IMG/VR virus record: IMGVR_UViG_3300042294_004161
Location: 1 to 64,000 of that record
From: a virus
Reading direction: 5' to 3' (one strand)
Length of the DNA: 64,000 nucleotides
Shown: piece after piece, positions 19,810-40,494 of the stretch
How positions within the stretch are numbered: position 1 is the stretch's first letter
How the letters are laid out: every line of letters starts with the position of its first letter
The notes under the pieces: model-generated
Seen by the model: only the letters and a program-made list of their open reading frames with translations
What the model was told of the DNA's origin: nothing
The model's database searches: none
Position numbers and translations under genes: made by a program

Positions 19810-19818
19810 ATAAATAAT

Positions 19819-21330: not shown

Positions 21331-24300
21331 ATGGCTCAAGTAAGATTTTTAGACCAAGTTCCTGTAGGGGTATATAATATAGATCCAACAAGTGGTGGAG
21401 GCACAATTGATATTTACCAAAATGGTACATTAGTTAGTTCTAGTGTTCCCTTTATAAACTTTTCAGGCTCTGTTGAATTAACCTCTTTTGACACAAATGG
21501 TATAACAGTATATATTACTAGTTCTGGAGGTTCAGGAACAGGATTTCCTTTTTCAGGTTCAGCTGTTATTACTGGTTCTTTAGTAATTTCAGGTTCAACT
21601 CAACCAATTGTATTACAAACACTTCCTGTTCAATCTGGTCCTTATGTTGTAACTTACAATCCAGAAACAGGAATAATTGGATATGTAAATTCTACATCTG
21701 GTACAAGTGGACTTTCAGGCTCCTCAGGTACTGCAGGTGTATCAGGTACATCTGGCACATCAGGATCAAATGGATCTTCAGGAAATACAGGCATTTCAGG
21801 TACATCTGCTGAATCTGGTACATCAGGTTCAAGCGGTAGTGCTGGATCTTCAGGCAATATAGGAGCAAACGGAACTTCAGCAGCTTCAGGTACTTCAGGT
21901 ACCTCAGGTTCATCTGGTTCAAATGGTGTAACCGGTGAAAATGGAACAAGTGCAATTTCAGGAACTAGTGGATCTTCAGGTTCATCTGGTACAAATGGTA
22001 TAACCGGTGAAAATGGAACAAGTGCAATTTCAGGAACTTCAGGTTCAAGTGGTAGTGCTGGTTCATCAGGTAATATAGGAGCATCAGGTGAAAGTGCGGT
22101 CTCAGGAACTTCAGGTTCATCTGGCTCAACAGGTTCAAATGGTGTATCTGGAGGAAATGGCACTTCAGGCACTTCAGGTGAATCAGGTTCATCTGGTTCA
22201 AACGGTGAATCTGGTATTTCAGGTCAAAGCGCAACCTCTGGCACTTCAGGTTCATCTGGTTCAAATGGTGAAACTGGTATTTCAGGCGAAAGTGCAATTT
22301 CAGGAACTAGTGGATCTTCAGGTTCAGCAGGTTCTTCAGGTAATATAGGGACAAATGGAAATTCAGCAGTCTCAGGTACTTCAGGTTCATCAGGTTCTGC
22401 AGGTTCAAATGGTGTAGCTGGAGAAGATGGAGCAAGTGCCACCTCAGGTACATCAGGTTCTTCAGGTTCAAATGGTACTTCTGGTGATATAGGAATAAAC
22501 GGAGCTTCCGCATCTTCAGGTACTTCAGGTTCATCAGGTTCAAACGGATCAAATGGTGTAGCTGGAGAAAATGGAACTTCAGGTACTTCAGGCACATCAG
22601 GTTCATCTGGTTCAAATGGTGAAGCCGGTATTTCAGGCGAAAGTGCAATTTCAGGTACTAGTGGATCTTCAGGTTCAGCTGGTTCAAATGGAGCAGTTGG
22701 AGCAAACGGAGCTTCAGCATCTTCAGGTACTTCAGGTTCATCTGGTTCAAACGGATCAAATGGTATAGTTGGAGAAGATGGAATAAGTGCTATTTCAGGT
22801 ACTTCAGGTTCATCAGGTTCATCAGGTTCAAACGGATCAAATGGTGTAGCTGGAGAAAATGGTACTTCAGGTACTTCAGGTGAATCAGGTTCAACAGGTT
22901 CAAATGGTACATCTGGAGAAAATGGAGCCTCAGGTATTTCAGGCACTTCAGGTACTTCAGGTACATCTGGCTCAACAGGTTCAAATGGTGTAGCCGGAGG
23001 AGATGGAGATAGTGCTATTTCAGGAACTTCAGGTTCATCTGGCTCAACAGGTTCAAATGGTATAGCTGGAGAAAATGGAACTTCAGGCCTTTCAGGTACT
23101 TCTGGTTCAAACGGATCAAATGGTGTATCTGGAGGAAATGGCACTTCAGGCACTTCAGGTGAATCAGGTTCATCTGGTTCAATAGGAACAAGTGGTGAAT
23201 CAGGAATTTCAGGTTCATCAGGTATTTCTGGAACTTCAGGTTCAACAGGTTCTTCTGGTTCTTCAGGAGCAAATGGTACTTCAGGAATAAGTGGTTTAAG
23301 TGGTAGCTCAGGTTCATCAGGTACGTCAGGTGAAGATGGTATATCTGGTACTTCAGGTACTTCAGGTTCATCAGGATCAAATGGTACTTCAGGAGATGAT
23401 GGAATTTCAGGTACAAGTGCAATTTCAGGTACATCAGGTACCTCAGGTTCAAATGGTAATTCAGGACAAAATGGTACATCAGGTGTAAGTACTACATCTG
23501 GTACTAGCGGATCTTCAGGTTCTATAGGTACTTCAGGAGATGCAAGTACTTCAGGAGAAAGTACTACTTCAGGTACAAGTGGATCTTCAGGTTCTATAGG
23601 TACTTCAGGTAATGCCGGTGAATCAGGTCAATCTAATACATCAGGTACATCAGGTACATCAGGATCTATAGGTACTTCAGGAGAAAGTGCAACTTCAGGC
23701 ACTTCTGGTACATCAGGTTCTTCAGGTACATTAGGTTCATCAGGTTCAAGTAGTGAGAGCGGAACATCAGGTTCTTCAGGTACATCAGGCTCATCAGGAG
23801 AAAGCGGAACTAGCGGTTCTTCAGGAACTTCAGGTTTATCAGGAGAAAGCGGAACTAGCGGTTCTTCAGGAACTTCAGGTTCATCAGGAGAAAGCGGAAC
23901 TAGCGGTTCTTCAGGTTTAAGTGGTGAGAGCAGAACATCAGGTTCTTCAGGTACATCAGGTTCAAGTGGCTCATCAGGAGATAATGGTATATCAGGTATC
24001 AGTGCTACCTCAGGTACATCAGGTTCAAGTGGTTCATCAGGAGATAATGGAATTTCAGGAATAAGTGCTACTTCAGGCACCTCAGGTACCTCAGGGTCAA
24101 ATGGAATTAATGGAGATGCAGGTACCTCAGGTATAAGTGCAACTTCAGGCACATCAGGTTCAAATGGTACTTCAGGAAATGATGGAATTTCTGGTACAAG
24201 TGCTATTTCTGGTACTTCAGGAACTTCAGGTTCAAATGGTACCTCAGGAAATAATGGTAATGCAGGTACTTCAGGTATAAGCTCAACTTCAGGTACTTCT

Positions 24301-27300
24301 GGTTCAAGTGGCACCTCAGGAGATAACGGAAACTCAGGTACAAGTGCTATTTCTGGTACTTCAGGTACCTCAGGTACATCAGGATCAAATGGAGTTAATG
24401 GAGAAAATGGAACTTCAGCAATCTCAGGTACTTCAGGTACAAATGGTTCAAGCGGTACCTCAGGAGTAGCAGGTGATTCAGGTCTATCCAGAACATCAGG
24501 TACTTCAGGAACTAATGGTTCATCAGGTACCTCAGGTAATGAAGGAACATCAGGTGTTAGTGCATTATCAGGAACATCAGGTACAAATGGCTCAAACGGA
24601 ATTGATGGTATAGCAGGCACTTCAGGTGTTAGTGCAACATCTGGAACAAATGGTTCAAGCGGTACCTCAGGAGTAGCAGGTGATTCAGGTCTATCCAGAA
24701 CATCAGGTACTTCAGGCACCTCAGGTTCATCTGGCTCAAATGGAGTCACAGGAGATGATGGTATAAGTGCAGCCTCAGGTACAAGTGGTACTTCAGGTTC
24801 AGCAGGTACAAATGGAGAGGCAGGTATAAATGGAACAAGTGCAATTTCAGGAACATCAGGAACATCAGGTACTTCAGGTTCAAACGGAAATATAGGAGAA
24901 GATGGAACTTCAGCTCTATCTGGTACTAGTGGATCTTCAGGTTCAAATGGTACCTCAGGAAATAATGGTGCCTCAGGAACAAGTGCTATCTCAGGTACTT
25001 CAGGTACAAATGGTTCAAGCGGTACCTCAGGAGTAGCAGGTGATTCAGGTCTATCCAGAACATCAGGTACTTCAGGCACCTCAGGTTCAGCCGGTACAAA
25101 TGGTATTGATGGAGTTGCTGGTACCTCAGGTGTTAGTGCATTATCAGGAACATCAGGTACAAATGGTTCAAATGGTATTGATGGTGTAGCAGGTACCTCA
25201 GGTATAAGCTCAACTTCAGGTACAAATGGTTCCTCAGGTACAAATGGTATTAATGGTGTAGCAGGAACATCAGGTGTTAGCGCGGTCTCAGGCTCATCAG
25301 GTTCAAATGGCACAAATGGAATAAATGGAAATACAGGTACTTCAGGTGTAAGTGCAGTCTCAGGTACCTCAGGTACAAATGGTTCAAATGGTATTGATGG
25401 AGTTGCTGGTACTTCAGGTGTTAGCGCGGTCTCAGGTACCTCAGGTTCTAATGGTACAAACGGAATCAATGGAGTCGAAGGCACATCAGGTGTAAGTGCT
25501 ACCTCAGGTACTTCAGGTTCAAATGGTACCTCAGGTAACGCAGGAGCTTCAGGAGCTAGTGCTACTTCAGGTACTTCAGGAACAAATGGATCAAGTGGTA
25601 CTGCTGGAGCAGCTGGAGCCTCAGGTGCAAGTGCGGCCTCAGGTACCTCAGGTACTAATGGCTCTTCAGGTACAAATGGAGTTAATGGTAATGCTGGAAC
25701 TTCAGGTGTAAGCGCGGTCTCAGGCACAAATGGTACCTCAGGCACAAATGGTGTTAATGGTAACGCTGGAGCATCTGGTGTAAGCGCAACTTCGGGTACT
25801 AATGGTACAAATGGTACAACTGGAGCAACAGGTAATGCTGGAGCTTCAGGTGAATCAAGAACCTCAGGTACAAATGGTACTTCAGGCACAAATGGCACTT
25901 CAGGAGTTAACGGAGCATCAGGTGTAAGCGCAGTCTCAGGTACAAACGGTACATCAGGTACAAATGGAGTTAATGGTAATGCAGGAACTTCAGGTGTAAG
26001 CGCAGTCTCAGGTACAAACGGTACATCAGGTACAAATGGAGTTAATGGTAACGCTGGAGCATCTGGTGTTAGCGCAGTTTCAGGTACCTCAGGTACAAAT
26101 GGTACAAACGGAGCTAATGGTAATGCAGGTGCAAATGGTGCAAGTGCGGTATCAGGTACCTCAGGTACTTCAGGTACAGCAGGAAATAATGGTAATGCAG
26201 GAGGATCAGGTGTAAGTGCTACCTCAGGTACAAATGGTACTTCAGGTACTACAGGAGCTAATGGTAATGCAGGAGGATCAGGTGTAAGTGCAGTCTCAGG
26301 CACATCAGGTACAAATGGTACAAATGGTGCTAATGGAGCAGCAGGTGCAAATGGTGCAAGTGCAGCCTCAGGTACCTCAGGTACTTCAGGTACAGCAGGT
26401 ACAAATGGTTTATCTGTAAATGGTACTGCAGGTATAAGTGGAAATACATTTAATAATCAACCAGGATTCCCAGTACTTACATGTAATACTACTCAAATTC
26501 AAAGTACAAGCTTAATGTTCTTTGATGCTGGAAATAGTAGAGTATGTACCCCTGGAGATATGTTAATACATGGTGTATTTGTTGGTAAAGGTCCAGGAGC
26601 TATTGATACAAATACTAGAGTAGGGCCTGGAAATAATTTCAGCGGTAATACAACAGGTTATAGTAATGTAGCTATTGGAAGTAATGCTATGAAAGATAAT
26701 ACTACTGGAGCAAATAACGTAGCTGTTGGTAAGGATGCTTTACTAGATAATACTACAGGAGCTAGTAACATAGGAATAGGACGTAATGCCTTATATAATA
26801 CAAATTCCTCTAATAATATAGGTATTGGAACTAACTCTTCATTTAATAATTCAAGTGGTAATAAAAATGTAGCAATTGGATCTTCAGCATTATATTCTAA
26901 CACAACAGCTGCTACTAGTACAGCAATTGGTTATAGAGCGCAGTTATATTATAATCATTCTAATATTATAGCTGTTGGATCTGATTCTTTAGCATCAGCA
27001 GCTAACCACACAGTTTGGGGAAATTCAGCAAATGATGTTTGTAATTGTGTTTATGTAGCATGGTCAGAAGTTTCTGATTGTAGAGATAAAACAGAAATAG
27101 AAACATTATCTTCTGATTTAGGATTAAATTTAATTCGTAAACTAAGACCAGTATCCTTTAAAAAGGATCATAGAGATACATATGTAAGAGAATGTGGTTT
27201 TAAATATGGAGAAAAAGATGGCACATTAGCTGGAGAAAAAGAACATTATGGTTTAATAGCTCAAGAATTAAACCAAGCATTAACAGAATTAGACACTAGA

Positions 27301-27435
27301 TTTGATGCTTTAGGACATGATCCTAAAAAAGACGCATATCGTGTGACTTATACAGAATTAATAGCTCCTGTAATTAAATCAATTCAAGAATTAGACGAAA
27401 GATTAAAAATTGTTGAAACTAGATTGGAAATCTAA
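21331..27435 (+). CDS. Giant Gly-X-Y repeat fibre protein (2034 aa) with C-terminal peptidase S74-type intramolecular chaperone
   Basis: About 1580 aa of G-X-S/T/N triplets; then NVAIG..AL..NTTG beta-roll repeats; SDCRDK...LRPVSF...GLIAQE...YTELIAPVIKSIQEL. Confidence 0.85.
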   Translation: MAQVRFLDQVPVGVYNIDPTSGGGTIDIYQNGTLVSSSVPFINFSGSVELTSFDTNGITVYITSSGGSGTGFPFSGSAVITGSLVISGSTQPIVLQTLPVQSGPYVVTYNPETGIIGYVNSTSGTSGLSGSSGTAGVSGTSGTSGSNGSSGNTGISGTSAESGTSGSSGSAGSSGNIGANGTSAASGTSGTSGSSGSNGVTGENGTSAISGTSGSSGSSGTNGITGENGTSAISGTSGSSGSAGSSGNIGASGESAVSGTSGSSGSTGSNGVSGGNGTSGTSGESGSSGSNGESGISGQSATSGTSGSSGSNGETGISGESAISGTSGSSGSAGSSGNIGTNGNSAVSGTSGSSGSAGSNGVAGEDGASATSGTSGSSGSNGTSGDIGINGASASSGTSGSSGSNGSNGVAGENGTSGTSGTSGSSGSNGEAGISGESAISGTSGSSGSAGSNGAVGANGASASSGTSGSSGSNGSNGIVGEDGISAISGTSGSSGSSGSNGSNGVAGENGTSGTSGESGSTGSNGTSGENGASGISGTSGTSGTSGSTGSNGVAGGDGDSAISGTSGSSGSTGSNGIAGENGTSGLSGTSGSNGSNGVSGGNGTSGTSGESGSSGSIGTSGESGISGSSGISGTSGSTGSSGSSGANGTSGISGLSGSSGSSGTSGEDGISGTSGTSGSSGSNGTSGDDGISGTSAISGTSGTSGSNGNSGQNGTSGVSTTSGTSGSSGSIGTSGDASTSGESTTSGTSGSSGSIGTSGNAGESGQSNTSGTSGTSGSIGTSGESATSGTSGTSGSSGTLGSSGSSSESGTSGSSGTSGSSGESGTSGSSGTSGLSGESGTSGSSGTSGSSGESGTSGSSGLSGESRTSGSSGTSGSSGSSGDNGISGISATSGTSGSSGSSGDNGISGISATSGTSGTSGSNGINGDAGTSGISATSGTSGSNGTSGNDGISGTSAISGTSGTSGSNGTSGNNGNAGTSGISSTSGTSGSSGTSGDNGNSGTSAISGTSGTSGTSGSNGVNGENGTSAISGTSGTNGSSGTSGVAGDSGLSRTSGTSGTNGSSGTSGNEGTSGVSALSGTSGTNGSNGIDGIAGTSGVSATSGTNGSSGTSGVAGDSGLSRTSGTSGTSGSSGSNGVTGDDGISAASGTSGTSGSAGTNGEAGINGTSAISGTSGTSGTSGSNGNIGEDGTSALSGTSGSSGSNGTSGNNGASGTSAISGTSGTNGSSGTSGVAGDSGLSRTSGTSGTSGSAGTNGIDGVAGTSGVSALSGTSGTNGSNGIDGVAGTSGISSTSGTNGSSGTNGINGVAGTSGVSAVSGSSGSNGTNGINGNTGTSGVSAVSGTSGTNGSNGIDGVAGTSGVSAVSGTSGSNGTNGINGVEGTSGVSATSGTSGSNGTSGNAGASGASATSGTSGTNGSSGTAGAAGASGASAASGTSGTNGSSGTNGVNGNAGTSGVSAVSGTNGTSGTNGVNGNAGASGVSATSGTNGTNGTTGATGNAGASGESRTSGTNGTSGTNGTSGVNGASGVSAVSGTNGTSGTNGVNGNAGTSGVSAVSGTNGTSGTNGVNGNAGASGVSAVSGTSGTNGTNGANGNAGANGASAVSGTSGTSGTAGNNGNAGGSGVSATSGTNGTSGTTGANGNAGGSGVSAVSGTSGTNGTNGANGAAGANGASAASGTSGTSGTAGTNGLSVNGTAGISGNTFNNQPGFPVLTCNTTQIQSTSLMFFDAGNSRVCTPGDMLIHGVFVGKGPGAIDTNTRVGPGNNFSGNTTGYSNVAIGSNAMKDNTTGANNVAVGKDALLDNTTGASNIGIGRNALYNTNSSNNIGIGTNSSFNNSSGNKNVAIGSSALYSNTTAATSTAIGYRAQLYYNHSNIIAVGSDSLASAANHTVWGNSANDVCNCVYVAWSEVSDCRDKTEIETLSSDLGLNLIRKLRPVSFKKDHRDTYVRECGFKYGEKDGTLAGEKEHYGLIAQELNQALTELDTRFDALGHDPKKDAYRVTYTELIAPVIKSIQELDERLKIVETRLEI
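21700..26442 (+). repeat. Coding 9-bp-period repeat (GGT ACT TCA type) with higher-order duplications
   Basis: Continuous triplet periodicity; e.g. 24421..24509 is repeated at 24988..25076. Confidence 0.95.
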
Positions 27436-27488
27436 AATTAAATTAATATATTTTATATCAAATTAAATACTTATAATAAAAAATAAAT

Positions 27489-27854
27489 ATGGCACAAACA
27501 GCAATTTTTGGCAAAATCAACCCAGTTATTAGTATTGTTGAACAAACAACATTATTTAATCCTTCTCCAGCATATATTACTGGAGATTACATTACAGCGA
27601 CCGCAAATCCTTATGTCTTAGGAACTAATGAAGTAAATTTCCGTGTATATTATGGAAATTGTACTTTTAATAATGATGGAGAAGTAGTTAGTTTTAAAAG
27701 TATTTATGTTGACAGTGTAAAACTTTCAGGCAGTGCAATTACTAGTTGGGGAGAAGATGATAGTGTTATTTTAGATACTATAGCTACTCAACAAGGTACC
27801 ACAGTTACACAAGTTGTATCTGGTAGTTTAGGAATTGGAGAAATAATATATTAA
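27489..27854 (+). CDS. Hypothetical protein (possible fibre accessory)
   Basis: Follows fibre 1; variant late motif ATACTTATA at 27467. Confidence 0.55.
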   Translation: MAQTAIFGKINPVISIVEQTTLFNPSPAYITGDYITATANPYVLGTNEVNFRVYYGNCTFNNDGEVVSFKSIYVDSVKLSGSAITSWGEDDSVILDTIATQQGTTVTQVVSGSLGIGEIIY

Positions 27855-27887
27855 AAATATTTAAATTAGTTTTAAATTAAAAAAGTT

Positions 27888-28709
27888 ATGATAGAAAAAG
27901 TATTTTATAATAGTTCTATGCCGAGGGCTGGGTCTACTTTAATACAAAATATTTTAGGACAAAACCCAGAAATATATGCTACTCCAACATCTGGTTTATT
28001 TGAGATGATGGCTACCTCTAGAACTATATTTACAGATAGTTTAGAAATTAAAGCTCAAAATGAGCAAGAAATGTTAAATGGCTTTAAAGGCTTCCTTAAA
28101 GGAGGTCTTTATAATTTTTACAATAATATAACTGATAAACCTTATGTAATAGATAAATCAAGAGGATGGAATTCAGAATGGGAATTTATTAATGCTTTTG
28201 ATCCTAATCCTAAAATTATTTGTATGATTAGAGATATAAGAGCAGTATATTCTTCTTTAGAAAAAAAATTTAGAAAACATCCACTACAAGATCATCATTT
28301 AGCTAATTGGGTTAATTTAACAGGTACTACAACTGACAAAAGAATACAATTCTGGTTTACAAACCCACCTATTGGTCCTTCTATGGATAAAATATACCAA
28401 ACATTAATTCAGGGAATACATAAAAATATTTTATTTATTAAGTTTGAGGAACTTTGTTCTGATCCTGATATACAATTAAAAAAAATATATGAATATCTTG
28501 AATTACCATTCTATCAACATGATTTTAAAAATATTCAACAAATAACACATGAGGATGATAAATGGTATGGTATTTTTGGAGATCATATTATTAGGCAAGA
28601 ACTTAAACCTGTAGAAGATGATTATTTAGAGGTATTAGGACCTAATGCTTGTAGACTGATTGTAGAAAATTATGGTTGGTTTTTTAATGATTTTGGTTAT
28701 AAAATTTAA
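27888..28709 (+). CDS. PAPS-dependent sulfotransferase
   Basis: 5'-PSB loop SMPRAGSTL, VIDKSR, 3'-PB IRDIRAVYSS, IKFEELC. Confidence 0.88.
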   Translation: MIEKVFYNSSMPRAGSTLIQNILGQNPEIYATPTSGLFEMMATSRTIFTDSLEIKAQNEQEMLNGFKGFLKGGLYNFYNNITDKPYVIDKSRGWNSEWEFINAFDPNPKIICMIRDIRAVYSSLEKKFRKHPLQDHHLANWVNLTGTTTDKRIQFWFTNPPIGPSMDKIYQTLIQGIHKNILFIKFEELCSDPDIQLKKIYEYLELPFYQHDFKNIQQITHEDDKWYGIFGDHIIRQELKPVEDDYLEVLGPNACRLIVENYGWFFNDFGYKI

Positions 28710-28711
28710 TT

Positions 28712-29680: not shown

Positions 29681-30120
29681 TATATTGGCTCACAGGACAA
29701 CCAGGACATGGTAAAACAGTTTTATCTAAAATGTTAAAACATTACATTGAATTAAATGAAAATACAACAGTATTTAATATTGATGGAGATGATTTACGCG
29801 AAATTTTAACTAATAAAGATTATTCTAAACAAGGTAGAGAAAATAACATAAAAACAGCACATTCTATTGCAAGATATTTGGCAAATCAAGGATTTGATGT
29901 TATCGTATCGTTAGTATCACCTTATAGAGAATTAAGAGAAGAATTTAAATCTTTAGGAAATATAACTGAAATATATGTTCATACAACTGAAATTAGAGGC
30001 AGAGAACAATTTCATGTAGAAGATTATGAACCACCATTATCTAATTTTATAGATATTGATACTACTAACCAAACACCAGGACAAAGCTTAAGTACTATTT
30101 TAAATTATATTCATGGATAA
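29677..30120 (+). CDS. cysC: Adenylyl-sulfate (APS) kinase
   Basis: WLTGQPGHGKT, IDGDDLR, DYSKQGRENNI, VSLVSPYRELRE, YEPP. Confidence 0.9.
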   Translation: MIYWLTGQPGHGKTVLSKMLKHYIELNENTTVFNIDGDDLREILTNKDYSKQGRENNIKTAHSIARYLANQGFDVIVSLVSPYRELREEFKSLGNITEIYVHTTEIRGREQFHVEDYEPPLSNFIDIDTTNQTPGQSLSTILNYIHG

Positions 30121-30774: not shown

Positions 30775-33700
30775 ATGGCTGAAAATAGAAGTAGTGGAGT
30801 TAATAGGTTAGATAGTCCAGATAAAGGTAGAGGATTTTTTAACAACTCTTTAGGTTTTAATAAAAATAATCTACCTGTAGTTACTCAAGGATGGGAAAAT
30901 TATGTATTAACAATAGATGATACAGGTCTTGTATCTTTAGTTCAAGTATCATCAACAAGCACATCAGGAACAGCAGGTACTTCTGGTACAAGTGGTACAT
31001 CAGGCTCAAACGGTACATCAGGTTCAAGTGGTGCTTCCGGTTCAAGTGGTATCTCAGGTTCAAGAGGTACATCAGGTATAACTGGTTCATCAGGTACATC
31101 AGGTAGCTCATCAGGTACTTCAGGCTCAAGTGGCTCTTCAGGTACAGCAGGTGCAGACGGTCAGTCAGGTTTAAGTGCTACTTCAGGTACCTCAGGCACT
31201 TCAGGATCCTCAGGTACCTCAGGTCTAACAGGTTCATCAGGAATATCTAGAACCTCAGGCAGTTCAGGCTCAAGTGGTACATCAGGTTCCTCAGGTACAG
31301 CAGGTGCAGATGGTCAATCAGGATTAAGTGCTACCTCAGGTACATCTGGTTCCTCAGGCTCTTCAGGTACATCAGGTCTAACAGGTTCTTCTGGATTATC
31401 TAGAACCTCAGGTACATCAGGCTCATCAGGTTCCTCAGGTACAGCAGGTGCAGATGGTCAATCTGGCCTTAGCACTACATCTGGCACCTCAGGTTCATCA
31501 GGTTCAAGTGGTACCTCAGGTTTGGTAGGTTCATCAGGATTATCTAGAACCTCAGGTACTTCAGGCACCTCAGGATCAAATGGATCTTCAGGTACAGCAG
31601 GTGCAGATGGTCAATCAGGTTTAAGTGCTACATCTGGCACCTCAGGTTCATCAGGTTCAAGTGGTACCTCAGGTTTGGTAGGTTCATCAGGTTTATCTAG
31701 AACTTCAGGTTCAAGTGGTTCATCAGGTTCCTCAGGTACAGCAGGTGCAGACGGACAATCAGGTTTAAGTGCTACCTCAGGTACATCTGGTTCTTCTGGT
31801 TCTTCAGGTACCTCAGGTTTAGTAGGTTCTTCAGGACAGTCTAGAACCTCAGGTACATCAGGCTCAAGTGGCTCATCAGGTACAGCAGGTGCAGATGGTC
31901 AATCTGGACTAAGCTCAACTTCAGGCACTTCAGGATCAAGTGGCTCTTCAGGCACATCAGGTCTAGTTGGTTCATCAGGAATATCTAGAACTTCAGGTAC
32001 ATCTGGTACAAATGGCTCATCGGGTACAGCAGGAGCAGATGGTCAATCTGGATTAAGCGCTACCTCAGGTACATCAGGTACTTCAGGTTCAAGTGGAACT
32101 TCAGGTTTAGTAGGTTCTTCTGGTTTATCTAGAACATCTGGTGCTTCAGGTACATCAGGTACTTCTGGTACTAATGGTTCAAGTGGTACAGCAGGTGCAG
32201 ACGGTCAGTCAGGTTTAAGTGCTACCTCAGGTACAAGTGGAACTTCAGGTTCAAGTGGTACATCAGGACTAGTAGGTTCCTCAGGACTATCTAGAACATC
32301 AGGTACCTCAGGTACCTCAGGTTCTTCAGGTACATCAGGAACAAATGGTTCTTCTGGTACTTCAGGAAATGCTGGAGTTTCAGGAGTAAGCTCAACTTCA
32401 GGCACTTCAGGTACCTCAGGATCATCAGGTACATCAGGTCTAGCTAGAAGTTCAGGTACTTCAGGTAGTTCAGGTACAAGTGGTACATCAGGAGATATAG
32501 GTTCCTCAGGTGCCAGTGCAGCTTCAGGAACCTCAGGTACAAATGGCTCAAATGGTACCTCAGGTAATGCAGGTGTCTCAGGTGTAAGTTCTACCTCAGG
32601 TACAAGTGGTACATCAGGTTCTTCAGGTACATCAGGTTTAGCTAGAACTTCAGGTACCTCAGGTACCTCAGGTTCTTCAGGTACATCTGGTGATATTGGG
32701 ACAAGTGGTACAAGTACAGTCTCAGGTACCTCAGGTACCTCAGGTTCAAGTGGTACATCAGGAGATATAGGCACTTCAGGTGCAAGTGCGGCCTCAGGTA
32801 CCTCAGGTACTAATGGCTCTTCAGGTACAAATGGAGCAATAGGTACTTCAGGAGCCAGTGCCACCTCAGGTACTTCAGGATCCTCAGGTACAAATGGTAA
32901 TGCAGGTGTCTCAGGTGTTAGTTCAACCTCAGGTACTTCAGGTACCTCAGGTTCTTCAGGTACATCTGGTCTATCCCAAAGTTCAGGCACTTCAGGCACC
33001 TCAGGTTCTTCAGGTACATCTGGTGATGCAGGAGCTTCAGGTTTATCTAGAACCTCAGGTACTTCAGGCACTTCAGGATCAAATGGTACCTCAGGTAACG
33101 CTGGAGCCTCAGGTGCAAGTGCCACCTCAGGTACCTCAGGTACTAATGGATCTTCAGGTACAAATGGAGCAATAGGTACTTCAGGAACAAGTGCAGCCTC
33201 AGGTACCTCAGGTACAAACGGATCCTCAGGCACAAATGGTAACGCAGGTGTTTCAGGTGTAAGCTCTACCTCAGGTACAAGTGGTACATCAGGCTCAAGT
33301 GGCACTTCAGGTTTAGCTAGAAGTTCAGGTTCCTCAAGTGCTTCAGGTACCTCAGGTACCTCAGGTTCAGCTGGTACTTCAGGTATATCATTTAATGGTA
33401 CAAGTGGAATATCAGGTGGTGTATTTACAAACCAACCAGACTTTTTAGTACGAACTACAGGTACTACTACAATACAAAGTGTACCATTCCTATTTGCAGA
33501 TATAACTAATAGTAGGTTGGGTATTGGTACTACTACCCCGAACGCTCTTTTAAGTCTAGGAACATCAGTCCAAGATAATAAAATTTATCTTTACGATGGA
33601 ACCTCAGATAAATACGGTCTAGGAATACGCAGTAATCAACTTATAATTTATAGTGGCGCAGCTGCGGCTTCTACTGGGGGAATTCTTTTTGGCACCTATG

Positions 33701-35274
33701 ACGGTACAACGTTTGCCGAACTAATGAGAATAAGGAAAGATGGCAACGTAGGTATTGGAATAACATCCCCTGGCTCCCGTCTAGTAGTCCAAGGTTCAGG
33801 TGCAACATCAGCAACCTCTGCTCTAAATATAACCAACTCAACTCCAACAAGTCTATTGTTTGTAAGAGATGATAGCAACGTCGGTATTGGGACGACGGCG
33901 CCTGAAGCACTGCTACATTTAAGTAAATCATCGGCAGGTGGAGAAGGGGCATTTTTGTTTATTGATAACCCCGCAGCATCTACGTTAGACAATAAAGCTG
34001 GAATTAGATTTGCGACAAACGCTGGAGCTTCATTCTCAGGGTATGGTTCATTCATTGAAGCTATAAATACGAATGCTGGCAACGGTGCTGAATCATTAGC
34101 CTTTGGAACTTGGAATGGGGCAGCAAGAGGAGAGCGTATGCGTATTGATGCATCAGGCAACGTCGGCATTGGTACTACGAGTCCAAGTTCTTTGCTTGAT
34201 GTTGTTACAAACACGGTTGGCCTTGCTACAAATTCTATAAAATTAGGAAACGCAGCTGGAGACTCTAGAAGTGTTGGTCAATTTCTTGGCGACCAAGCGG
34301 TTTATAATCCAGCAGCGGCAACAAACACTACAAATGGTTCAGTTGCTGGAATTAAGTTCAATTGGTATAGCGAAAATTGGATGTTGTCTGCTACACGTGG
34401 TGGGGGCGCTGATATAGAAGGATTAGTAATTAGTAGAAATGGTACTGAAAGATTAGTTATTAGCTCAACAGGTAATGTAGGCATTGGCACGACGGCGCCA
34501 TTCTCAACTGCAAAATTACAAGTTAAGACTGCCACGGATATAAACGTAGCAATACAAACTGGTACAACAAATACTTCCGGAATTAAAATAAATGCATTTA
34601 ACGATGCTGGTAATGCAAATATACCTTTAGAATTAAACGGTTCTATTTTAAGTCTAAAAACGGGTGAGGCAGAACGGATGCGTATTGATGCATCAGGCAA
34701 CGTCGGCATTGGCACGACAAGTCCAGGCTCTCGCCTAGTAGTCCAAGGCTCAGGCACAACATCAGCAACATCAGCTCTCAATGTAACCAACTCAACCCCA
34801 ACAAGCCTATTGTTTGTAAGAGATGATGGAAACGTAGGTATTGGAACTTCTTCTCCTTTATACCCTGTAGTGATAGCAAATAGAGGTCCAGCAGGAACTC
34901 CTCAACGTTCTCTAGCAATAGGTAACACAGCAACTAATGGTACATTTATGTATCTTGGATCTTCAGCATCTACATCAGGATATAATTTAATACAATCAGT
35001 AACTACTGAGGGTACAGCTTACGGTAATTTAGTACTACAACCAGAAGCTGGTGATGTAGGTATAGCGACAACATCTCCACAAGCAAAACTTCATGTAGCT
35101 GGAACAGTAAGAATAGATAGTACATCCTCTACCCCCAATAGTTTAGGAGGTAGTGTAGATACATTATTAACAAATACAGCCACAGATAATATAGCTATGG
35201 GGGTTCCTGATACTTGGCTTCAAATTAATATAAATGGTGTAGATTATGCTATCCCAGTATATCAACCTGCTTAA
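30775..35274 (+). CDS. Second Gly-X-Y repeat fibre protein (1499 aa) with C-terminal GNVGIGTTxP tail-fibre modules
   Basis: About 820 aa of G-X-S triplets, then about eight (G/S)NVGIGTTxP-type units. Confidence 0.85.
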   Translation: MAENRSSGVNRLDSPDKGRGFFNNSLGFNKNNLPVVTQGWENYVLTIDDTGLVSLVQVSSTSTSGTAGTSGTSGTSGSNGTSGSSGASGSSGISGSRGTSGITGSSGTSGSSSGTSGSSGSSGTAGADGQSGLSATSGTSGTSGSSGTSGLTGSSGISRTSGSSGSSGTSGSSGTAGADGQSGLSATSGTSGSSGSSGTSGLTGSSGLSRTSGTSGSSGSSGTAGADGQSGLSTTSGTSGSSGSSGTSGLVGSSGLSRTSGTSGTSGSNGSSGTAGADGQSGLSATSGTSGSSGSSGTSGLVGSSGLSRTSGSSGSSGSSGTAGADGQSGLSATSGTSGSSGSSGTSGLVGSSGQSRTSGTSGSSGSSGTAGADGQSGLSSTSGTSGSSGSSGTSGLVGSSGISRTSGTSGTNGSSGTAGADGQSGLSATSGTSGTSGSSGTSGLVGSSGLSRTSGASGTSGTSGTNGSSGTAGADGQSGLSATSGTSGTSGSSGTSGLVGSSGLSRTSGTSGTSGSSGTSGTNGSSGTSGNAGVSGVSSTSGTSGTSGSSGTSGLARSSGTSGSSGTSGTSGDIGSSGASAASGTSGTNGSNGTSGNAGVSGVSSTSGTSGTSGSSGTSGLARTSGTSGTSGSSGTSGDIGTSGTSTVSGTSGTSGSSGTSGDIGTSGASAASGTSGTNGSSGTNGAIGTSGASATSGTSGSSGTNGNAGVSGVSSTSGTSGTSGSSGTSGLSQSSGTSGTSGSSGTSGDAGASGLSRTSGTSGTSGSNGTSGNAGASGASATSGTSGTNGSSGTNGAIGTSGTSAASGTSGTNGSSGTNGNAGVSGVSSTSGTSGTSGSSGTSGLARSSGSSSASGTSGTSGSAGTSGISFNGTSGISGGVFTNQPDFLVRTTGTTTIQSVPFLFADITNSRLGIGTTTPNALLSLGTSVQDNKIYLYDGTSDKYGLGIRSNQLIIYSGAAAASTGGILFGTYDGTTFAELMRIRKDGNVGIGITSPGSRLVVQGSGATSATSALNITNSTPTSLLFVRDDSNVGIGTTAPEALLHLSKSSAGGEGAFLFIDNPAASTLDNKAGIRFATNAGASFSGYGSFIEAINTNAGNGAESLAFGTWNGAARGERMRIDASGNVGIGTTSPSSLLDVVTNTVGLATNSIKLGNAAGDSRSVGQFLGDQAVYNPAAATNTTNGSVAGIKFNWYSENWMLSATRGGGADIEGLVISRNGTERLVISSTGNVGIGTTAPFSTAKLQVKTATDINVAIQTGTTNTSGIKINAFNDAGNANIPLELNGSILSLKTGEAERMRIDASGNVGIGTTSPGSRLVVQGSGTTSATSALNVTNSTPTSLLFVRDDGNVGIGTSSPLYPVVIANRGPAGTPQRSLAIGNTATNGTFMYLGSSASTSGYNLIQSVTTEGTAYGNLVLQPEAGDVGIATTSPQAKLHVAGTVRIDSTSSTPNSLGGSVDTLLTNTATDNIAMGVPDTWLQININGVDYAIPVYQPA
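30967..33420 (+). repeat. Coding 9-bp-period repeat with higher-order unit (GTAGADGQSGLSATSGTSGSSGSSGTSGLVGSSGLSRTS)
   Basis: GADGQSGLS unit recurs about eight times in 31140..32300. Confidence 0.95.
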
Positions 35275-35309
35275 TAACTTTTAAAATTAATATTTATAAA
35301 TAAATAATT

Positions 35310-35642
35310 ATGGCAATTCAAACAACATCAAATTTTGAGTACAATTATGGAACATATTCAAATCCATATTTTCGTTTAGTACTTCATCTTCCCCAAAGCG
35401 GTCAAGATACACCAGTAGACTGTTTTATGTATCATTCTAAAGAAATGTATGAAAGCGGAAGTCAAGCTATTACATGTCTTCCATTCTATATCCCAAATGC
35501 TTCCGCCTCAATAAACAACCAAGGTATAGATGTAGTAAACAAATATCTACTATATGTTACTGAACAAGTTACAGGATCATTAGAAACTTTATCTTCAGGT
35601 TCAGTATTTGAAATAGTAGAAATACCTACAGAATTAGATTAA
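35310..35642 (+). CDS. Hypothetical protein (possible fibre accessory)
   Basis: Follows fibre 2; late motif at 35290. Confidence 0.55.
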   Translation: MAIQTTSNFEYNYGTYSNPYFRLVLHLPQSGQDTPVDCFMYHSKEMYESGSQAITCLPFYIPNASASINNQGIDVVNKYLLYVTEQVTGSLETLSSGSVFEIVEIPTELD

Positions 35643-35683
35643 TTAGGTTTGGAAAACTAAAAATTAGTTATTATATTATTGTT

Positions 35684-37678
35684 ATGAAAAAACTGTTATA
35701 TATAGCCCCTCACCTATCAACTGGGGGATTACCACAATATCTAACTAAAAAAATAGAACTACTTAAAGATAAATTTGAAATTTATCTTGTAGAATGGGTT
35801 GATTGTACAGGTGGTGTTTTAGTAGTTACTAGAAATAAAATTGTAAAGCTTATCGACAGTGATAAGTTTTTTACATTAGGAGACAACAAACAAGAACTAA
35901 TTAACATTATATCTAAAATAAAACCAGATATAATTCATTTAGAAGAAATACCAGAATTTTTTATGGATTCTGATATTACTAAACAAATATATAATCCTAA
36001 TAGAAAATATGTTATTGTAGAAACATCTCATGACTCATCATATGATGTATCAAATAAACAGTTCTTTCCAGACAAATTTATGTTTGTCTCACAATGGCAG
36101 ATAGATCAATATAAGAGCATTGATGTACCTAGTGTATTAATCGAATATCCTATTGAATATATAGAACGTCCCGACCGTACTGAGGTACTACGTAATTTAC
36201 ACTTAGATCCAACAAAAAAACACATTTTACACGTTGGGTTATACACATCAAGAAAGAATCAAAAAGAATTCTTTGAATATGCTAAAGCATTTCCTGAGTA
36301 TGAGTTTCATAGTTTAGGTAATAGAGCAGACAACTTTAAATGGTATTGGGAACCATTAGAACAAAACACTCCTCCTAATTTAACATGGTGGAATGAAAGA
36401 ACAGATGTAGATGCTTTTTATCAAGCAATGGATTTGTTTTTGTTTACTTCTAGAGGAACAAATAATGATAAAGAAACTATGCCTTTAGTAATCCGAGAGG
36501 CAATATCTAATCAGATACCAACTTTAATTTACAATCTAGAGGTATATCAGAACTATTTTGATAAGTTTGAAAAAGTAAATTATCTTGATTTTGATAGTTT
36601 TAGAACAAATTGTGATATAATCAAAAATACTCTAGAACAAAATAATAATATAAATCTTGATGAAGAAGCAATTGTTATATCAACATACCCTATATCAAGT
36701 TCTACAATACAAACAACTAAAGAATGTATTGAATCTTTAAGACAAACTGGTAGAAAAATTATATTAACATCTCATATTCCTATTCCTGAAGAATTACAAA
36801 AAATTGTAGATTATTGTTTATATGATTCTAATAATATTTTAACTAAACATACATTCTATAAACACACATGGGTTGATTATGATACATGGAGAGTTGATTT
36901 AAATTTAACCGGAGAAGATAATGATGTATATCATGGACCTGCTGTTTATACAAATTATTATAATGCAGCTGTATTAGCTAATAATTTAGGTATTAAAAAA
37001 TTGTACTTTTTAAATTATGATTACTATTTAAAAAATTCTTTATATATAGATAATATATCTTTAATTTTAAATAATAAAAAAGCATATGTTTGTTTAAAAA
37101 AAGAACAAGAAGGTAATACAGTTACTACTTTCTTTTTAGCATCTGATCCACAGTTCTATTTAAATCATTTTCCATTAATTAAAACATCTAAAGATTATGA
37201 TGATTTAATGGTAAAATGGGGTAGTGAATCTAATGGTTTGGAAAATTTAGCATATCATACATTTAATCAAGATAAAGATAAAATATATTGGGAAGAAGAA
37301 TCTAAATTCAATAATTTAATAACTGAAAATTTTGAACATAAAGATTACTCTAGAATCGAATATTTTTCAGTAATCCCTATAAAAGATAATCTAAATCAAT
37401 TTGCTGTATTTTTACATGTAAATAATTTTCAAGATAGTAGAGTTATTAATATAACAATAACTGAAAATGATAATCTTATATCTGATGATAATATAAATTT
37501 TACCAATAAAATGTCATGGTTTAAACAAATATTTTCAAATATAGAAAATATATATGAAATAAAATATAAATCATTTGATGAAATAAATGGTTCTTTAATT
37601 GAAACAAAAGTTATTAAAATAGATAAAGATTATTTTGAAAATAAAATTAATCAAAACGGTTTACTTATATTAAAATGA
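35684..37678 (+). CDS. Multidomain glycosyltransferase (N-terminal GT-B/GT4-like plus uncharacterised C-terminal domain)
   Basis: PHLSTGGLPQY, VGLYTSRKNQ, FYQAMDLFLFTS...ETMPLVIREA. Confidence 0.8.
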   Translation: MKKLLYIAPHLSTGGLPQYLTKKIELLKDKFEIYLVEWVDCTGGVLVVTRNKIVKLIDSDKFFTLGDNKQELINIISKIKPDIIHLEEIPEFFMDSDITKQIYNPNRKYVIVETSHDSSYDVSNKQFFPDKFMFVSQWQIDQYKSIDVPSVLIEYPIEYIERPDRTEVLRNLHLDPTKKHILHVGLYTSRKNQKEFFEYAKAFPEYEFHSLGNRADNFKWYWEPLEQNTPPNLTWWNERTDVDAFYQAMDLFLFTSRGTNNDKETMPLVIREAISNQIPTLIYNLEVYQNYFDKFEKVNYLDFDSFRTNCDIIKNTLEQNNNINLDEEAIVISTYPISSSTIQTTKECIESLRQTGRKIILTSHIPIPEELQKIVDYCLYDSNNILTKHTFYKHTWVDYDTWRVDLNLTGEDNDVYHGPAVYTNYYNAAVLANNLGIKKLYFLNYDYYLKNSLYIDNISLILNNKKAYVCLKKEQEGNTVTTFFLASDPQFYLNHFPLIKTSKDYDDLMVKWGSESNGLENLAYHTFNQDKDKIYWEEESKFNNLITENFEHKDYSRIEYFSVIPIKDNLNQFAVFLHVNNFQDSRVINITITENDNLISDDNINFTNKMSWFKQIFSNIENIYEIKYKSFDEINGSLIETKVIKIDKDYFENKINQNGLLILK

Positions 37679-38625
37679 AAATAGCACAAATACATCCAGG
37701 TTGTGGGATATCAGTTCCTCCTCCATCTTGGGGAGCAATAGAAAAAATAGTATGGGAATTTATGGTGAATCTTAAAAAATTAGGTCATCAAGTAGATTTA
37801 AAATGGGCTAACGAAGTTAAACCAGGAGAATATGATTTAGTAATGGTTCATGTTGCTAATTTAGCATTAGAATTAGCTGATAAAGGAATACCATATATTT
37901 TTCAACATCATGACCATCATGCTTTTCATTATGGAAAAACATCTGATGTATATAAACAAAATAAAGAGGCTATGGAAAAATCAGTATTTTCCTTAGTTCC
38001 AGCAAGATATTTAGTTAATTATTTTGAGTTACCAAATGTTTATTATTTTTCACATGGTATAAACAATGAAGAATTTTATCCTATAAATAAATCTAAACCT
38101 ACTGAACCTAAATTACTTATGATAGCTAACAATGGATTAGCAGGTGATCCTGGTTTTGATAGAAAAGGATTTACATATGGAATAGCATTAGCTCAAGCTC
38201 GTAATCTACCTATTACAATAGCAGGACCATCAAATAATAAACATTTCTTTAATAATCATTTATGGGTGTTGGCTTATCCAAAACTTAATATTATATTTGA
38301 TTTACCAAATGAACAACTATTAAATCTATACCATCAACATGATATATTTATACATCCAACAATGTTAGAGGCAGGTCATCCTAATTTAACAATGTTAGAG
38401 GCAGTAGCTTCTGGTTTACCATTAATTGCAGATTGGGAACATGAAACTATATTTCATGGGGCTTGGAGGTCACCTAGAGATGTCTTTGAAATGTCTAGAG
38501 GATTAGATGATATAATGAATAATTGGGAATTATATAGAACAAAATGTTCAGAAACAGCTAAAGAATTATCATGGTACAATCGTTCAAAAGAATTAATAAA
38601 TTTATATAATGAACATGCGAACTAA
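37675..38625 (+). CDS. GT4-family glycosyltransferase
   Basis: VPPPSWGAIEKIV, RKG, DIFIHPTMLEAGHPNLTMLEAVASGLP. Confidence 0.85.
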   Translation: MKIAQIHPGCGISVPPPSWGAIEKIVWEFMVNLKKLGHQVDLKWANEVKPGEYDLVMVHVANLALELADKGIPYIFQHHDHHAFHYGKTSDVYKQNKEAMEKSVFSLVPARYLVNYFELPNVYYFSHGINNEEFYPINKSKPTEPKLLMIANNGLAGDPGFDRKGFTYGIALAQARNLPITIAGPSNNKHFFNNHLWVLAYPKLNIIFDLPNEQLLNLYHQHDIFIHPTMLEAGHPNLTMLEAVASGLPLIADWEHETIFHGAWRSPRDVFEMSRGLDDIMNNWELYRTKCSETAKELSWYNRSKELINLYNEHAN

Positions 38626-39301
38626 ATTTTATACAAAAAATAACCAACTAATTGACATATCAACATGGGATATATCAGGTGATATAAATGATATAGGAAA
38701 TAGATATGGTTGGGAAGGATCAATGGCTTATGGTAATTTAATACATGATGAATTAAATATCCATGGACCTGGAATGCAATATGGTGATATTTATTTAGAT
38801 TTAGGGGCTAACATTGGTATGTCTGCTATTAGAGCTGAGTCCAAAGGATGTTCTAAAATATATTGTATCGAACCAGATCCTGGAGTGTTTGAGGCTTTAA
38901 ATAAAAATAAAAGTTATAATTGGATCGTAGATAATATAGCTATAGGTACAGAACAAGGGTATATTGATATTTCTAAATGGCCTGATTGGTGGGATGTACA
39001 ACCAATTCAATGTATTACATTAGATCAATTTTTTGCGAAACATAATCTTAGTAAAGTAGATTATATGAAGTGTGATATTGAAGGTCATGAAAAATATGTT
39101 TTTGAAAATGTAAGTCAAATAACATGGGATAAAATACAAAAAATATTTTTTGAATATCATGAAGACACTCAAAATTTAAATGAAGAACAAAGAAATGAAG
39201 AACGATTAAAATTTGTTAAATTTTTTGCTGATAAAGGTTTTAATAATCATTTTGTTTCTCTTGGATATTATCAAAGTTTTATATATTATTGGAAATCATG
39301 A
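38609..39301 (+). CDS. FkbM-family SAM-dependent methyltransferase
   Basis: YLDLGANIG, IEPDP, TLD...VDYMKCDIEGHE, FEYH. Confidence 0.88.
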   Translation: MNMRTKFYTKNNQLIDISTWDISGDINDIGNRYGWEGSMAYGNLIHDELNIHGPGMQYGDIYLDLGANIGMSAIRAESKGCSKIYCIEPDPGVFEALNKNKSYNWIVDNIAIGTEQGYIDISKWPDWWDVQPIQCITLDQFFAKHNLSKVDYMKCDIEGHEKYVFENVSQITWDKIQKIFFEYHEDTQNLNEEQRNEERLKFVKFFADKGFNNHFVSLGYYQSFIYYWKS

Positions 39302-40494
39302 AAAACATATTAATTAACGAATACAACAATACCCCAATCCTAAATTTAGAGAATAAAAAACCACAAAATAAATTTATAATTAATTTTATAGATGGTGCTT
39401 TCTTAGAAATATTAGGTCCTGTAAATCTAGAATATAAAGCTAAATTTATAGATCGAAAAACTAAAAAAGTACTCCATGAAACTACACTTAGTAATAACAT
39501 GTGGACTCGTACTAATATTAAATATTGTATTAATTGGCGAGTAGAAGTTTATCAAAACAATAATTTAGTGTATGAACATGATTGGGATCCAACAGGTAAA
39601 AGAGTCTATATTGCTTTAGATTCAGGAGCCTTAGGTGATACATTAGCTTGGTTTCCATATGTAGAAGAATTTAGAAAAACATTTATGTGTGATGTTGTAT
39701 GTTCTACATTCCATAATGATTGGTTTAAAGAAAACTATCCAAATATTGAATTTATAAAACCAGGTACAGTAGCGAATGATTTATATGCTATGTATCCAAT
39801 TGGATGGTTTTATGATAATAAAAAAGTAGTATATGATAAAGTACCAATTGATTTTAAAAAATATCCATTACAACAAACAGCTAGTGAAATTTTAGGATTA
39901 AGCTATAGTGAAACAAAACCAAATCTAGTTACACCTAATATAAAAACAGATATTGAAGGAGAATATGTAGTAATAGCACCTCATGCTTCAGCTCATGCTA
40001 AGTACTGGATGTATGAAAAAGGATGGCAATCTATAATAGACTATTTAAATGAAAAAGGATATAAAGTAGTTATGTTAACTGGAGAGCCTTTAAATGATGA
40101 ATGGCATGATTCAAAATTAGGAGGTACACTAACTGGAGTAATAAATAAAACTGGATATCATATAGATATTAAAGACCGAATGATTGATATTAGAGATGCT
40201 AAAGCATTTATAGGAGTAGGTAGTGGATTAAGTTGGTTATCATGGTCATTAAACACCCCTACAATTTTAATATCTGGTTTTAGTTATCCATATACTGAAA
40301 TGCAAGACTGTGAACGTATATTCCCTGAAAATAAATCAGTATGTACTGGATGTTTTAACAGACATTGGCTAAACCCAGGAGATTGGGAATGGTGTCCTGA
40401 TCATAAAGATACTCCAAGACAATTTGAATGTACTAAAACAATCACCCCAGATCAAATAATTAAATCAATAAATAAAATTTTAAAAATCAAATAA
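39298..40494 (+). CDS. Autotransporter heptosyltransferase-like protein O-glycosyltransferase (TibC/Aah, BAHT family)
   Basis: GALGDTLAWFPYVEEF, AKYW...GW, FIGVGSGLSWLSW..ILISGFS, Cys motif CTGC...WCPDHKDTPRQFECTKTIT; start moved to ATG 39298. Confidence 0.85.
   Translation: MKNILINEYNNTPILNLENKKPQNKFIINFIDGAFLEILGPVNLEYKAKFIDRKTKKVLHETTLSNNMWTRTNIKYCINWRVEVYQNNNLVYEHDWDPTGKRVYIALDSGALGDTLAWFPYVEEFRKTFMCDVVCSTFHNDWFKENYPNIEFIKPGTVANDLYAMYPIGWFYDNKKVVYDKVPIDFKKYPLQQTASEILGLSYSETKPNLVTPNIKTDIEGEYVVIAPHASAHAKYWMYEKGWQSIIDYLNEKGYKVVMLTGEPLNDEWHDSKLGGTLTGVINKTGYHIDIKDRMIDIRDAKAFIGVGSGLSWLSWSLNTPTILISGFSYPYTEMQDCERIFPENKSVCTGCFNRHWLNPGDWEWCPDHKDTPRQFECTKTITPDQIIKSINKILKIK

Follow-up and report, generated by a model that had tools for sequence, protein, structure and literature searches.

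Gene content and position of the island

We analysed a window consisting of the first 64 kb of the linear 99,130-bp IMG/VR record IMGVR_UViG_3300042294_004161, which is rated 59% complete. An island at positions 21331–40494 of this window encodes two giant collagen-like fibres that alternate with two blocks of enzyme genes: a putative sulfation block (27888–30728) following fibre 1 and a putative glycosylation block (35684–40494) following fibre 2. An earlier sequence-only reading of the same DNA had proposed that the phage builds sulfated, methylated glycans on its own fibres, and every gene that it listed was recovered where it had been placed, on the + strand.

The source phage is a T4-like myovirus of water from a large, mostly uncultured clade; relatives of its tail tube protein were found on more than 600 viral contigs, the best 80 of which share 80–94% identity. 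Nearly every gene lies on the + strand, and the GC content is approximately 30% overall and 44–46% within both fibre genes. The upstream border of the island is formed by three neck/head–tail connector genes (18577–21293, +; 410, 173 and 317 aa; phrog_211 head–tail adaptor, E value 1.3e-8) and the downstream border by orf82, the tail sheath and the tail tube (40498–43479, +). The sheath (40799–42904) displays 46% identity to that of Flavobacterium phage immuto and the tube (42991–43479) matches phrog_4542 (E value 7.6e-24), confirming the proposed location between neck and sheath. The island genes all lie on one strand, overlapping or closely spaced, inside this neck-to-sheath structural operon. 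In relatives that lack the island (L213, L184, L220, L230 and L231), three syntenic neck genes join orf82 and the sheath directly, so the island is an insertion at the neck/sheath junction. The 82-aa orf82 (40498–40746) itself directly precedes the sheath in almost every relative, with or without the island.

Collagen-like fibres

Fibre 1 (21331–27435, +, 2034 aa; Pfam Collagen, E value 1.4e-170) comprises an N-terminal domain, a 1570-aa collagen-like tract (residues 124–1693), a set of NxxAIG-type repeats and, at the C-terminus, a self-cleaving intramolecular trimerisation chaperone of the Peptidase_S74 type (E value 7.5e-9), which fits a trimer nucleated at that end. Fibre 2 (30775–35274, +, 1499 aa; Pfam Collagen, E value 1.9e-83) has an 806-aa collagen-like tract (residues 65–870) followed by a C-terminal domain of approximately 630 aa with GNVGIGTTSP-type repeats. 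These are the only collagen-repeat open reading frames (ORFs) in the contig. The collagen helix rises by approximately 0.29 nm per residue, so fully helical tracts of these lengths would span approximately 450 and 230 nm, respectively.

Both fibres display the long Gly-X-Y periodicity of PF01391, with 466 triplets in the fibre 1 tract and 235 in that of fibre 2, and the underlying DNA repeats with a period of 72 bp in fibre 1 and 72/144 bp in fibre 2. The tracts are interrupted 55 and 32 times, respectively, and the interruptions hold register, since 54 of the 55 and 30 of the 32 consist of one triplet that stays in register while Ala, Arg, Thr or Ser takes the place of Gly. The sequence-only reading had described G-X-S repeats with hundreds of Ser/Thr residues per fibre. 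The residue counts bear this out (758 Ser+Thr in fibre 1, 569 in fibre 2; 42% and 51% of the respective tracts), as does the Gly-repeat, Ser-rich character of the tracts, but the repeat is more specifically of the collagen type, with position X occupied chiefly by Thr or Ser and position Y chiefly by Ser or Asn. Both tracts are devoid of Pro, Lys and Tyr and contain few Asp, Glu or Arg residues. Neither, therefore, carries Pro or charged residues at X and Y in the manner of typical bacterial collagens, and the lack of Pro sets these tracts apart as unusual, given that Pro occupies approximately 19–31% of X positions in the latter (PMC8968730).

Each fibre gene is followed by a small ORF (27489–27854, +, 121 aa, after fibre 1; 35310–35642, +, 110 aa, after fibre 2) without Pfam, PHROG or NCBIfam matches. 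Homologues of the first occupy the equivalent position in L082, L083, L116 and L121. A shared role of the two as a fibre chaperone is unsupported, as they display no similarity to one another.

Putative glycosylation block

The last gene of the island (39289–40494, +; likely true start, the ATG at 39298) encodes a member of the TibC/Aah protein O-heptosyltransferase family (BAHT). It scores 298.6 bits against the NCBIfam Aah/TibC autotransporter O-heptosyltransferase equivalog TIGR04414 (cut-off 200), covering profile positions 15–374 of 374, and aligns with TibC (PDB 4RAP) over query residues 21–397 (E value 5.6e-51). Its D117, within an LGD motif, is aligned to the catalytic D110 of TibC, the D110A mutant of which is inactive, and C352, C355, C369 and C381 align to the TibC iron-finger cysteines C339, C342, C358 and C370 (PMC4358343). 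All five residues are invariant across 14 phage homologues. By these sequence features, the phage enzyme genuinely belongs to the TibC/Aah family, as the sequence-only reading had surmised. The studied BAHT members modify proteins rather than lipids or DNA (PMC4358343). No autotransporter is encoded in the window; the neighbours of the BAHT gene are the collagen-like fibres.

Three further enzymes precede the BAHT and likewise agree with the initial description. Two are GT4-type glycosyltransferases (GTs), both above the gathering cut-off of PF00534 (37.2 and 28.6 bits versus 26.4). The first (35684–37678, +, 664 aa) matches Glycos_transf_1 over residues 166–295 (E value 2.8e-9), while its residues 330–664 match solely viral hypothetical clusters in an atlas search; the second (37675–38625, +, 316 aa) is a marginal member of the same family. 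The third enzyme is an FkbM-family methyltransferase (38609–39301, +; Methyltransf_21, E value 1.2e-14), which exceeds the cut-offs of both PF05050 (55.3 versus 22.7 bits) and TIGR01444 (76.1 versus 37.7 bits).

Putative sulfation block

The first gene of this block encodes a sulfotransferase dependent on 3′-phosphoadenosine 5′-phosphosulfate (PAPS) (27888–28709, +; Sulfotransfer_3, E value 1.8e-16; Sulfotransfer_1, E value 3e-12). It scores 61.5 bits with Pfam (PF13469/PF00685; cut-off 27), and conservation extends to the PAPS-binding loops, where the PRAGST and RDxR...S motifs (P12, R13, G15, S16, T17, R115 and S123) are invariant among 22 homologues. The closest solved relative is the protein tyrosine sulfotransferase TPST1, a weak match (E value 2e-3).

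The adjacent gene (28712–29680, +) had been called a GT9-like GT. This holds for the predicted fold: an AlphaFold2 model (pLDDT 80) returned Foldseek hits to 3tov (E value 3.5e-12), WaaF (1psw; 5e-11), WaaC (1e-9) and TibC (1e-9), by which the protein has a GT9 (GT-B) fold. It does not hold for sequence families such as PF01075, as searches of Pfam (E value ≤1), NCBIfam and the PDB (phmmer and profile search) yielded no match. We also predicted a complex between this protein and the sulfotransferase, which obtained a score of 0.63 (best control, 0.00). For comparison, 58 of 80 solved complexes and 2 of 110 mismatched pairs attained this value. Between runs, at least 51% of the contacts were shared, with a partner pLDDT of at least 75. 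The predicted complex lends modest support to a partnership of the two proteins in this phage only.

The third gene encodes a short P-loop kinase resembling adenosine 5′-phosphosulfate (APS) kinase (29677–30120, +, 147 aa; Pfam APS_kinase, E value 2e-17) with recognisable P-loop, DGD and SP motifs. Its assignment as cysC is upheld by Pfam PF01583 (64 bits versus a cut-off of 21.1, over profile positions 4–110 of 152 only) but not by the NCBIfam equivalog apsK (TIGR00455), for which it scores 66.2 bits, below the cut-off of 138.7. It is followed by a 136-aa HxGH adenylyltransferase (30113–30523, +; CTP_transf_like, E value 3e-6; best PDB profile match NMNAT, 1e-8), in which the motifs GRWQPxHxGH and ISATxxR are invariant, and by a 72-aa DUF2061 membrane protein (30510–30728, +; PF09834, E value 1.6e-14). 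The sulfotransferase, the HxGH enzyme and the DUF2061 gene thus all proved to be of the kinds first supposed.

Conservation in related phages

Relatives of the BAHT were present on 189 viral contigs, 80 of which (61–75% identical) were compared. A GT4–GT4–(FkbM)–BAHT–orf82–sheath–tube block is conserved across these loci, with the 664-aa GT4 gene kept beside the BAHT in nearly all, the second GT4 gene conserved together with the BAHT and the FkbM gene an optional member that only some loci carry. Thirty-nine loci were informative, i.e. at least 3 kb of sequence was visible beyond the enzymes in the relevant direction, and in all 39 a Gly-repeat fibre ORF adjoins the block: 35 encode Gly-X-Y fibres with at least 25% Ser+Thr, 2 encode Gly-X-Y fibres with less and 2 (L015 and L019) encode beta-helix-type GGGxxNTASG fibres that terminate in an S74-like domain. 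The association is found in at least four layouts: a same-strand fibre upstream; an opposite-strand fibre downstream with no sheath nearby (L047–L052, L056, L058, L061, L072 and L081); an interleaved arrangement (L085); and the beta-helix-type fibre of L015/L019. A two-by-two table of BAHT against collagen-like ORFs, drawn from a control set anchored on the tube protein, was not used as a test, because it is confounded by the 10-kb flank ending within or just past the enzyme block.

A BAHT homologue was found in a single cultured phage, Microcystis phage Mel-JY01 (PP395634.1; L165:4750-8430). It encodes a 1226-aa ‘methyltransferase FkbM’, whose C-terminal BAHT domain shares 46% identity with the enzyme in the window, and a 639-aa ‘cytidylyltransferase like protein’ 3 kb downstream of this fusion. 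A search of a limited literature collection returned nothing relevant on this phage.

For the sulfation side, 80 loci were retrieved using the 136-aa adenylyltransferase as the probe. An APS-kinase homologue was detected in 77 of these, directly upstream of the adenylyltransferase in 74, and two of the three kinase-less loci are cut by a contig end. The sulfotransferase was present in 47 loci, the GT9-fold protein in 45, DUF2061 in 51 and all five genes in 43. The GT9-fold protein never occurs without the sulfotransferase, with which it is paired in 45 of the 47 sulfotransferase loci. The five genes form a mobile cassette, the internal order of which is variable but which always adjoins large fibre-like ORFs with 25–31% Ser+Thr. 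A GT4–GT4–BAHT run directly adjoins the GT9-fold/sulfotransferase pair in L015/L019, and L085 has its cassette interleaved with a BAHT fusion, next to a collagen-like ORF of 1525 aa.

Several cassette genes are also fused to one another. Fusions of kinase and adenylyltransferase are found in both orders (P0024, P0003 and P0036 one way, P0042 the other), that of P0036 including a complete APS_kinase domain (149 bits), and P0063, P0074 and P0075 are fusions of DUF2061 with APS kinase. From these sequence associations, the kinase, adenylyltransferase and DUF2061 trio is a candidate for a coherent PAPS-making unit. The ATP sulfurylase families Sat (PF01747) and CysD (PF01507, which includes PAPS reductase) were detected nowhere in the 99-kb contig, which is itself 59% complete. 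Owing to this absence and to its linkage and fusion with the kinase, the 136-aa adenylyltransferase is a candidate non-canonical ATP sulfurylase, on the strength of linkage rather than homology.

Two homologues of the adenylyltransferase, P0017 (431 aa) and P0043 (291 aa), have additional domains: one carries three NUMOD3 motifs ahead of the enzyme domain, suggesting a homing-endonuclease-type insertion, and the other is fused to phosphomannomutase domains.

Proposed function of the island

From gene context, we consider it somewhat probable that the island is a late-expressed, phage-encoded system for post-translational modification of the phage's own fibres. In such a system, the BAHT would add the first sugar to Ser/Thr residues of the fibre chains in the cytoplasm, the two GT4 enzymes would lengthen the glycan and the FkbM enzyme would methylate it. 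In animal collagen, chain modification must precede trimer formation (PMC8968730). The adenylyltransferase, acting in place of ATP sulfurylase, and the kinase would convert sulfate and ATP to PAPS, from which the sulfotransferase, bound to or steered by the GT9-fold protein, would sulfate the glycan or a second fibre sugar. The outcome would be hydrated, negatively charged fibres of approximately 450 and 230 nm. As the sequence-only reading speculated, such a coat might stabilise the fibres, shield the virion or serve as a lure to glycan-foraging hosts. Because the tracts lack Pro and hold few charged residues, the glycan may be required for the stability of their helix, as has been proposed for BclA. 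A more elaborate proposal is that many freshwater phages, a widespread group, build proteoglycan-like fibres in which proline-free collagen helices need the O-glycans of a viral BAHT for folding or stability and are sulfated via a minimal PAPS route, with a 136-aa NMNAT-like adenylyltransferase and a GT9-fold pseudo-enzyme as a guide; we advance this only tentatively and regard it as doubtful in its entirety.

The combined glycosylation and sulfation of the fibres, as first put forward, draws support from the identity of the BAHT, the GT9 fold, the position in the operon, the adjacency to fibres, the joining of sulfation to glycosylation genes in L015/L019 and L085 and the linkage and fusion of the PAPS genes. 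Several findings weigh against it. A BAHT gene lies within 10 kb of only 4 of the 80 cassette loci, indicating that sulfation is independent of BAHT glycans and that the two arms are separable. Within the sulfation arm, a low-confidence hhalign alignment (probability 19%, E value 0.0012) pairs the invariant GGLGK motif of the GT9-fold protein with GALGD of BAHT enzymes. Its invariant K42 thereby faces the Asp that serves catalysis in BAHT, so this residue appears to have given way to a Lys. The predicted interface with the sulfotransferase involves only residues 1–11 of the GT9-fold protein, an extension that is absent from most homologues and of low confidence in the monomer model. The adenylyltransferase is closest, in both sequence and fold, to archaeal/NadM NMNAT and PPAT, not to ATP sulfurylase. 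On the glycosylation side, ADP-heptose pathway genes (rfaE domain II, GmhA-type SIS_2) were absent from the 99-kb contig, although, with the contig only 59% complete, missing pathway genes are weak evidence. Distant BAHT fusions of 755–1243 aa (L189, L195, L201 and L240) occupy the neck/sheath junction without a fibre gene in the visible sequence. More generally, the support consists of gene context among related phages that share ancestry, so the cases are not independent; the 39 BAHT loci, several of them near-duplicates and all related, do not represent 39 independent events.

A final point against concerns the acceptor. TibC recognises a folded beta-helix held within its ring (PMC4358343), not a collagen helix, and the acceptor may accordingly be the C-terminal beta-structure domains of the fibres, or another virion protein, instead of the collagen tract; beta-helix-type repeats are present solely at the C-terminus of fibre 1 and in the L019 fibre. 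In its wider form, this alternative holds that the virion is glycosylated and sulfated but that the main acceptors are other structural proteins (insertion domains of sheath or capsid, neck proteins or the small Ser/Thr-rich ORFs of relatives) or, within the fibres, just their non-collagen C-terminal domains. Besides the substrate preference of TibC, it is favoured by the distant BAHT fusions at the neck/sheath junction, by the composition of the clade's sheaths (573–889 aa, 19–23% Ser+Thr) and by runs of approximately 200-aa ORFs with 26–32% Ser+Thr beside the enzymes in L169 and L092. The glycosylated proteins of mycobacteriophages are reported to be the capsid and tail tube proteins (Freeman et al. 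2023, cited in PMC12619734). Nevertheless, a Gly-repeat fibre lies beside the close BAHT relatives in all 39 informative loci, including layouts without a sheath, and the collagen tracts hold by far the most Ser/Thr sites. We therefore judge this alternative unlikely.

Modification of the phage's own fibres must also be weighed against modification of the host surface during infection (lipopolysaccharide, capsule, S-layer or adhesins), which could block superinfection or keep progeny off debris; the region beside the fibres would then be a hot spot at which accessory genes collect. In relatives, the neck/sheath junction clearly takes up variable insertions, the DUF2061 product is a membrane protein, and GT4, GT9-fold, FkbM and sulfotransferase proteins are typical of bacterial surface-polysaccharide clusters. 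The contig also encodes no sugar-nucleotide pathway, implying the use of host pools. However, Pfam and NCBIfam scans of the island ORFs revealed no flippase, polymerase, ligase or lipid-carrier transferase, and the BAHT equivalog assignment implies a cytoplasmic protein substrate. The genes, moreover, belong to the late structural operon of a lytic, T4-like phage, and the link to fibres survives transfer of the cassette into different genomic surroundings. Host-surface modification thus appears quite unlikely.

We consider improbable a third possibility, in which the kinase, adenylyltransferase and DUF2061 protein serve an auxiliary metabolism unrelated to the fibres (host sulfur assimilation, NAD or another adenylylated cofactor) and the sulfotransferase acts on a small molecule. 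The affinity of the adenylyltransferase to NMNAT/PPAT, the sub-threshold NCBIfam score of the kinase and the presence of the kinase/adenylyltransferase pair in approximately 30 of 80 loci without a homologue of the sulfotransferase used as the probe are all compatible with such a role; against this, all five genes including the sulfotransferase occur together in 43 of 80 loci, genuine APS-kinase domains (149 bits in P0036) are fused to the adenylyltransferase and to DUF2061, and the cassette remains beside fibre genes. DNA as the target was set aside by inference, as the BAHT, GT4, FkbM and sulfotransferase proteins have no known close DNA-modifying members and the genes lie within a structural module.

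Relation to known systems

The closest counterparts of the phage BAHT are TibC/TibA (PDB 4RAP/4RB4) and Aah/AIDA-I of E. coli, in which the enzyme gene similarly lies beside a gene for a long, repetitive, Ser-rich surface protein, and with which the phage enzyme shares full-length alignment, the catalytic Asp, the four iron-finger cysteines and a score above the equivalog cut-off. These systems are bacterial, however, with an autotransporter acceptor, and add single heptoses, whereas the phage BAHT is viral, lies beside a collagen-type fibre and is accompanied by GT4 enzymes, a methyltransferase and a sulfation cassette. The kinase/adenylyltransferase pair is reminiscent of bifunctional PAPS synthases (NCBIfam NF004040 and NF004035; APS kinase fused to a Sat- or CysN-type protein) in that a kinase and an HxGH-superfamily adenylyltransferase occur together, sometimes fused, and in its setting next to a PAPS-using sulfotransferase. 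It differs in that the phage adenylyltransferase, at 136 aa, is NMNAT/PPAT-like and neither Sat nor CysD, its sulfurylase role being suggested by linkage.

Among viruses, the giant virus Mimivirus encodes collagen-like/fibril proteins together with glycosylating enzymes (L230 and the fibril glycosylation genes). Mimivirus infects eukaryotes and attaches glucose to hydroxylysine through a hydroxylase–GT fusion, whereas the phage island belongs to a virus with a bacterial host, is proposed to use Ser/Thr O-glycosylation by a BAHT and includes an additional PAPS/sulfotransferase arm. To our knowledge, phage-encoded virion glycosylation has so far been demonstrated experimentally only in mycobacteriophages. 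There, phage GTs place O-linked glycans on the phages' own structural proteins, similar to the proposal made here (Freeman et al. 2023, PMC10527164, as cited in PMC12619734). That glycosylation is experimentally proven, whereas the present island is known from its genes, and the reported targets are the C-termini of the capsid and tail tube subunits, modified by other enzyme families, with no BAHT, collagen-like fibre or sulfation/PAPS genes.

The fibres themselves resemble BclA and BclA3 of the Bacillus and C. difficile exosporium, collagen-like filaments of the particle surface with Gly-X-Thr repeats, in which Thr is O-glycosylated by a dedicated enzyme encoded nearby, such as SgtA, and the glycan is thought to aid helix hydration and stability (PMC8968730, PMC7157674). 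BclA is bacterial and has proline-rich GPT repeats, other GT families and no sulfation, in contrast to the phage tracts with zero Pro.

A viral BAHT, collagen-like fibres and a PAPS/sulfotransferase cassette do not occur together in any of these closest known systems, and our search of the limited literature collection returned no phage system of this type, phage sulfotransferase, sulfated virion or phage TibC homologue. If the island does modify the fibres as proposed, hundreds of environmental phage contigs would encode glycosylated, sulfated fibres of a mucin- or proteoglycan-like nature, which would alter the view of phage adsorption, particle stability, aggregation and contact with polysaccharide-binding surfaces. 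The adenylyltransferase would be a candidate founding member of a novel class of very small ATP sulfurylases, and the viral BAHT could serve to glycosylate designed collagen-like materials.

Other features of the locus and its relatives

Minus-strand ORFs of up to 891 aa within the fibre genes (21654–26303 and 32205–34790; e.g. 23628–26303) are stop-free shadows of the Gly-X-Y repeats, not genes. A tRNA scan found none, and thus no clue to the host from this source, and promoter and terminator predictions in the island were no more numerous than in shuffled sequence. A PhoH-like gene (17449–18126; phrog_170, E value 6e-58) lies just upstream of the neck genes and occupies the equal position in Flavobacterium phage immuto.

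In two relatives (L031:500-2986 and L079:250-2735), a 414-aa ORF and two ORFs of approximately 200 aa precede the GT4 block. By eye, the former resembles a GT2–methyltransferase fusion, while the latter display HxD...H motifs like those of 2OG-Fe(II) oxygenases and might be of the collagen hydroxylase type. In L169:6000-7871, L092:10855-12849 and L019:11209-12204, the enzyme blocks are separated from orf82/sheath by runs of ORFs of approximately 200–330 aa with 26–32% Ser+Thr; these ORFs have no counterpart in the window and may encode small fibre or decoration proteins, which would make them candidate acceptors. Sheath length in the clade, ranging from 573 to 889 aa, suggests variable insertion domains, and some relatives carry tandem sheath paralogues (L092:13188-17463 and L100:10945-14467), e.g. 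of 702 and 707 aa.

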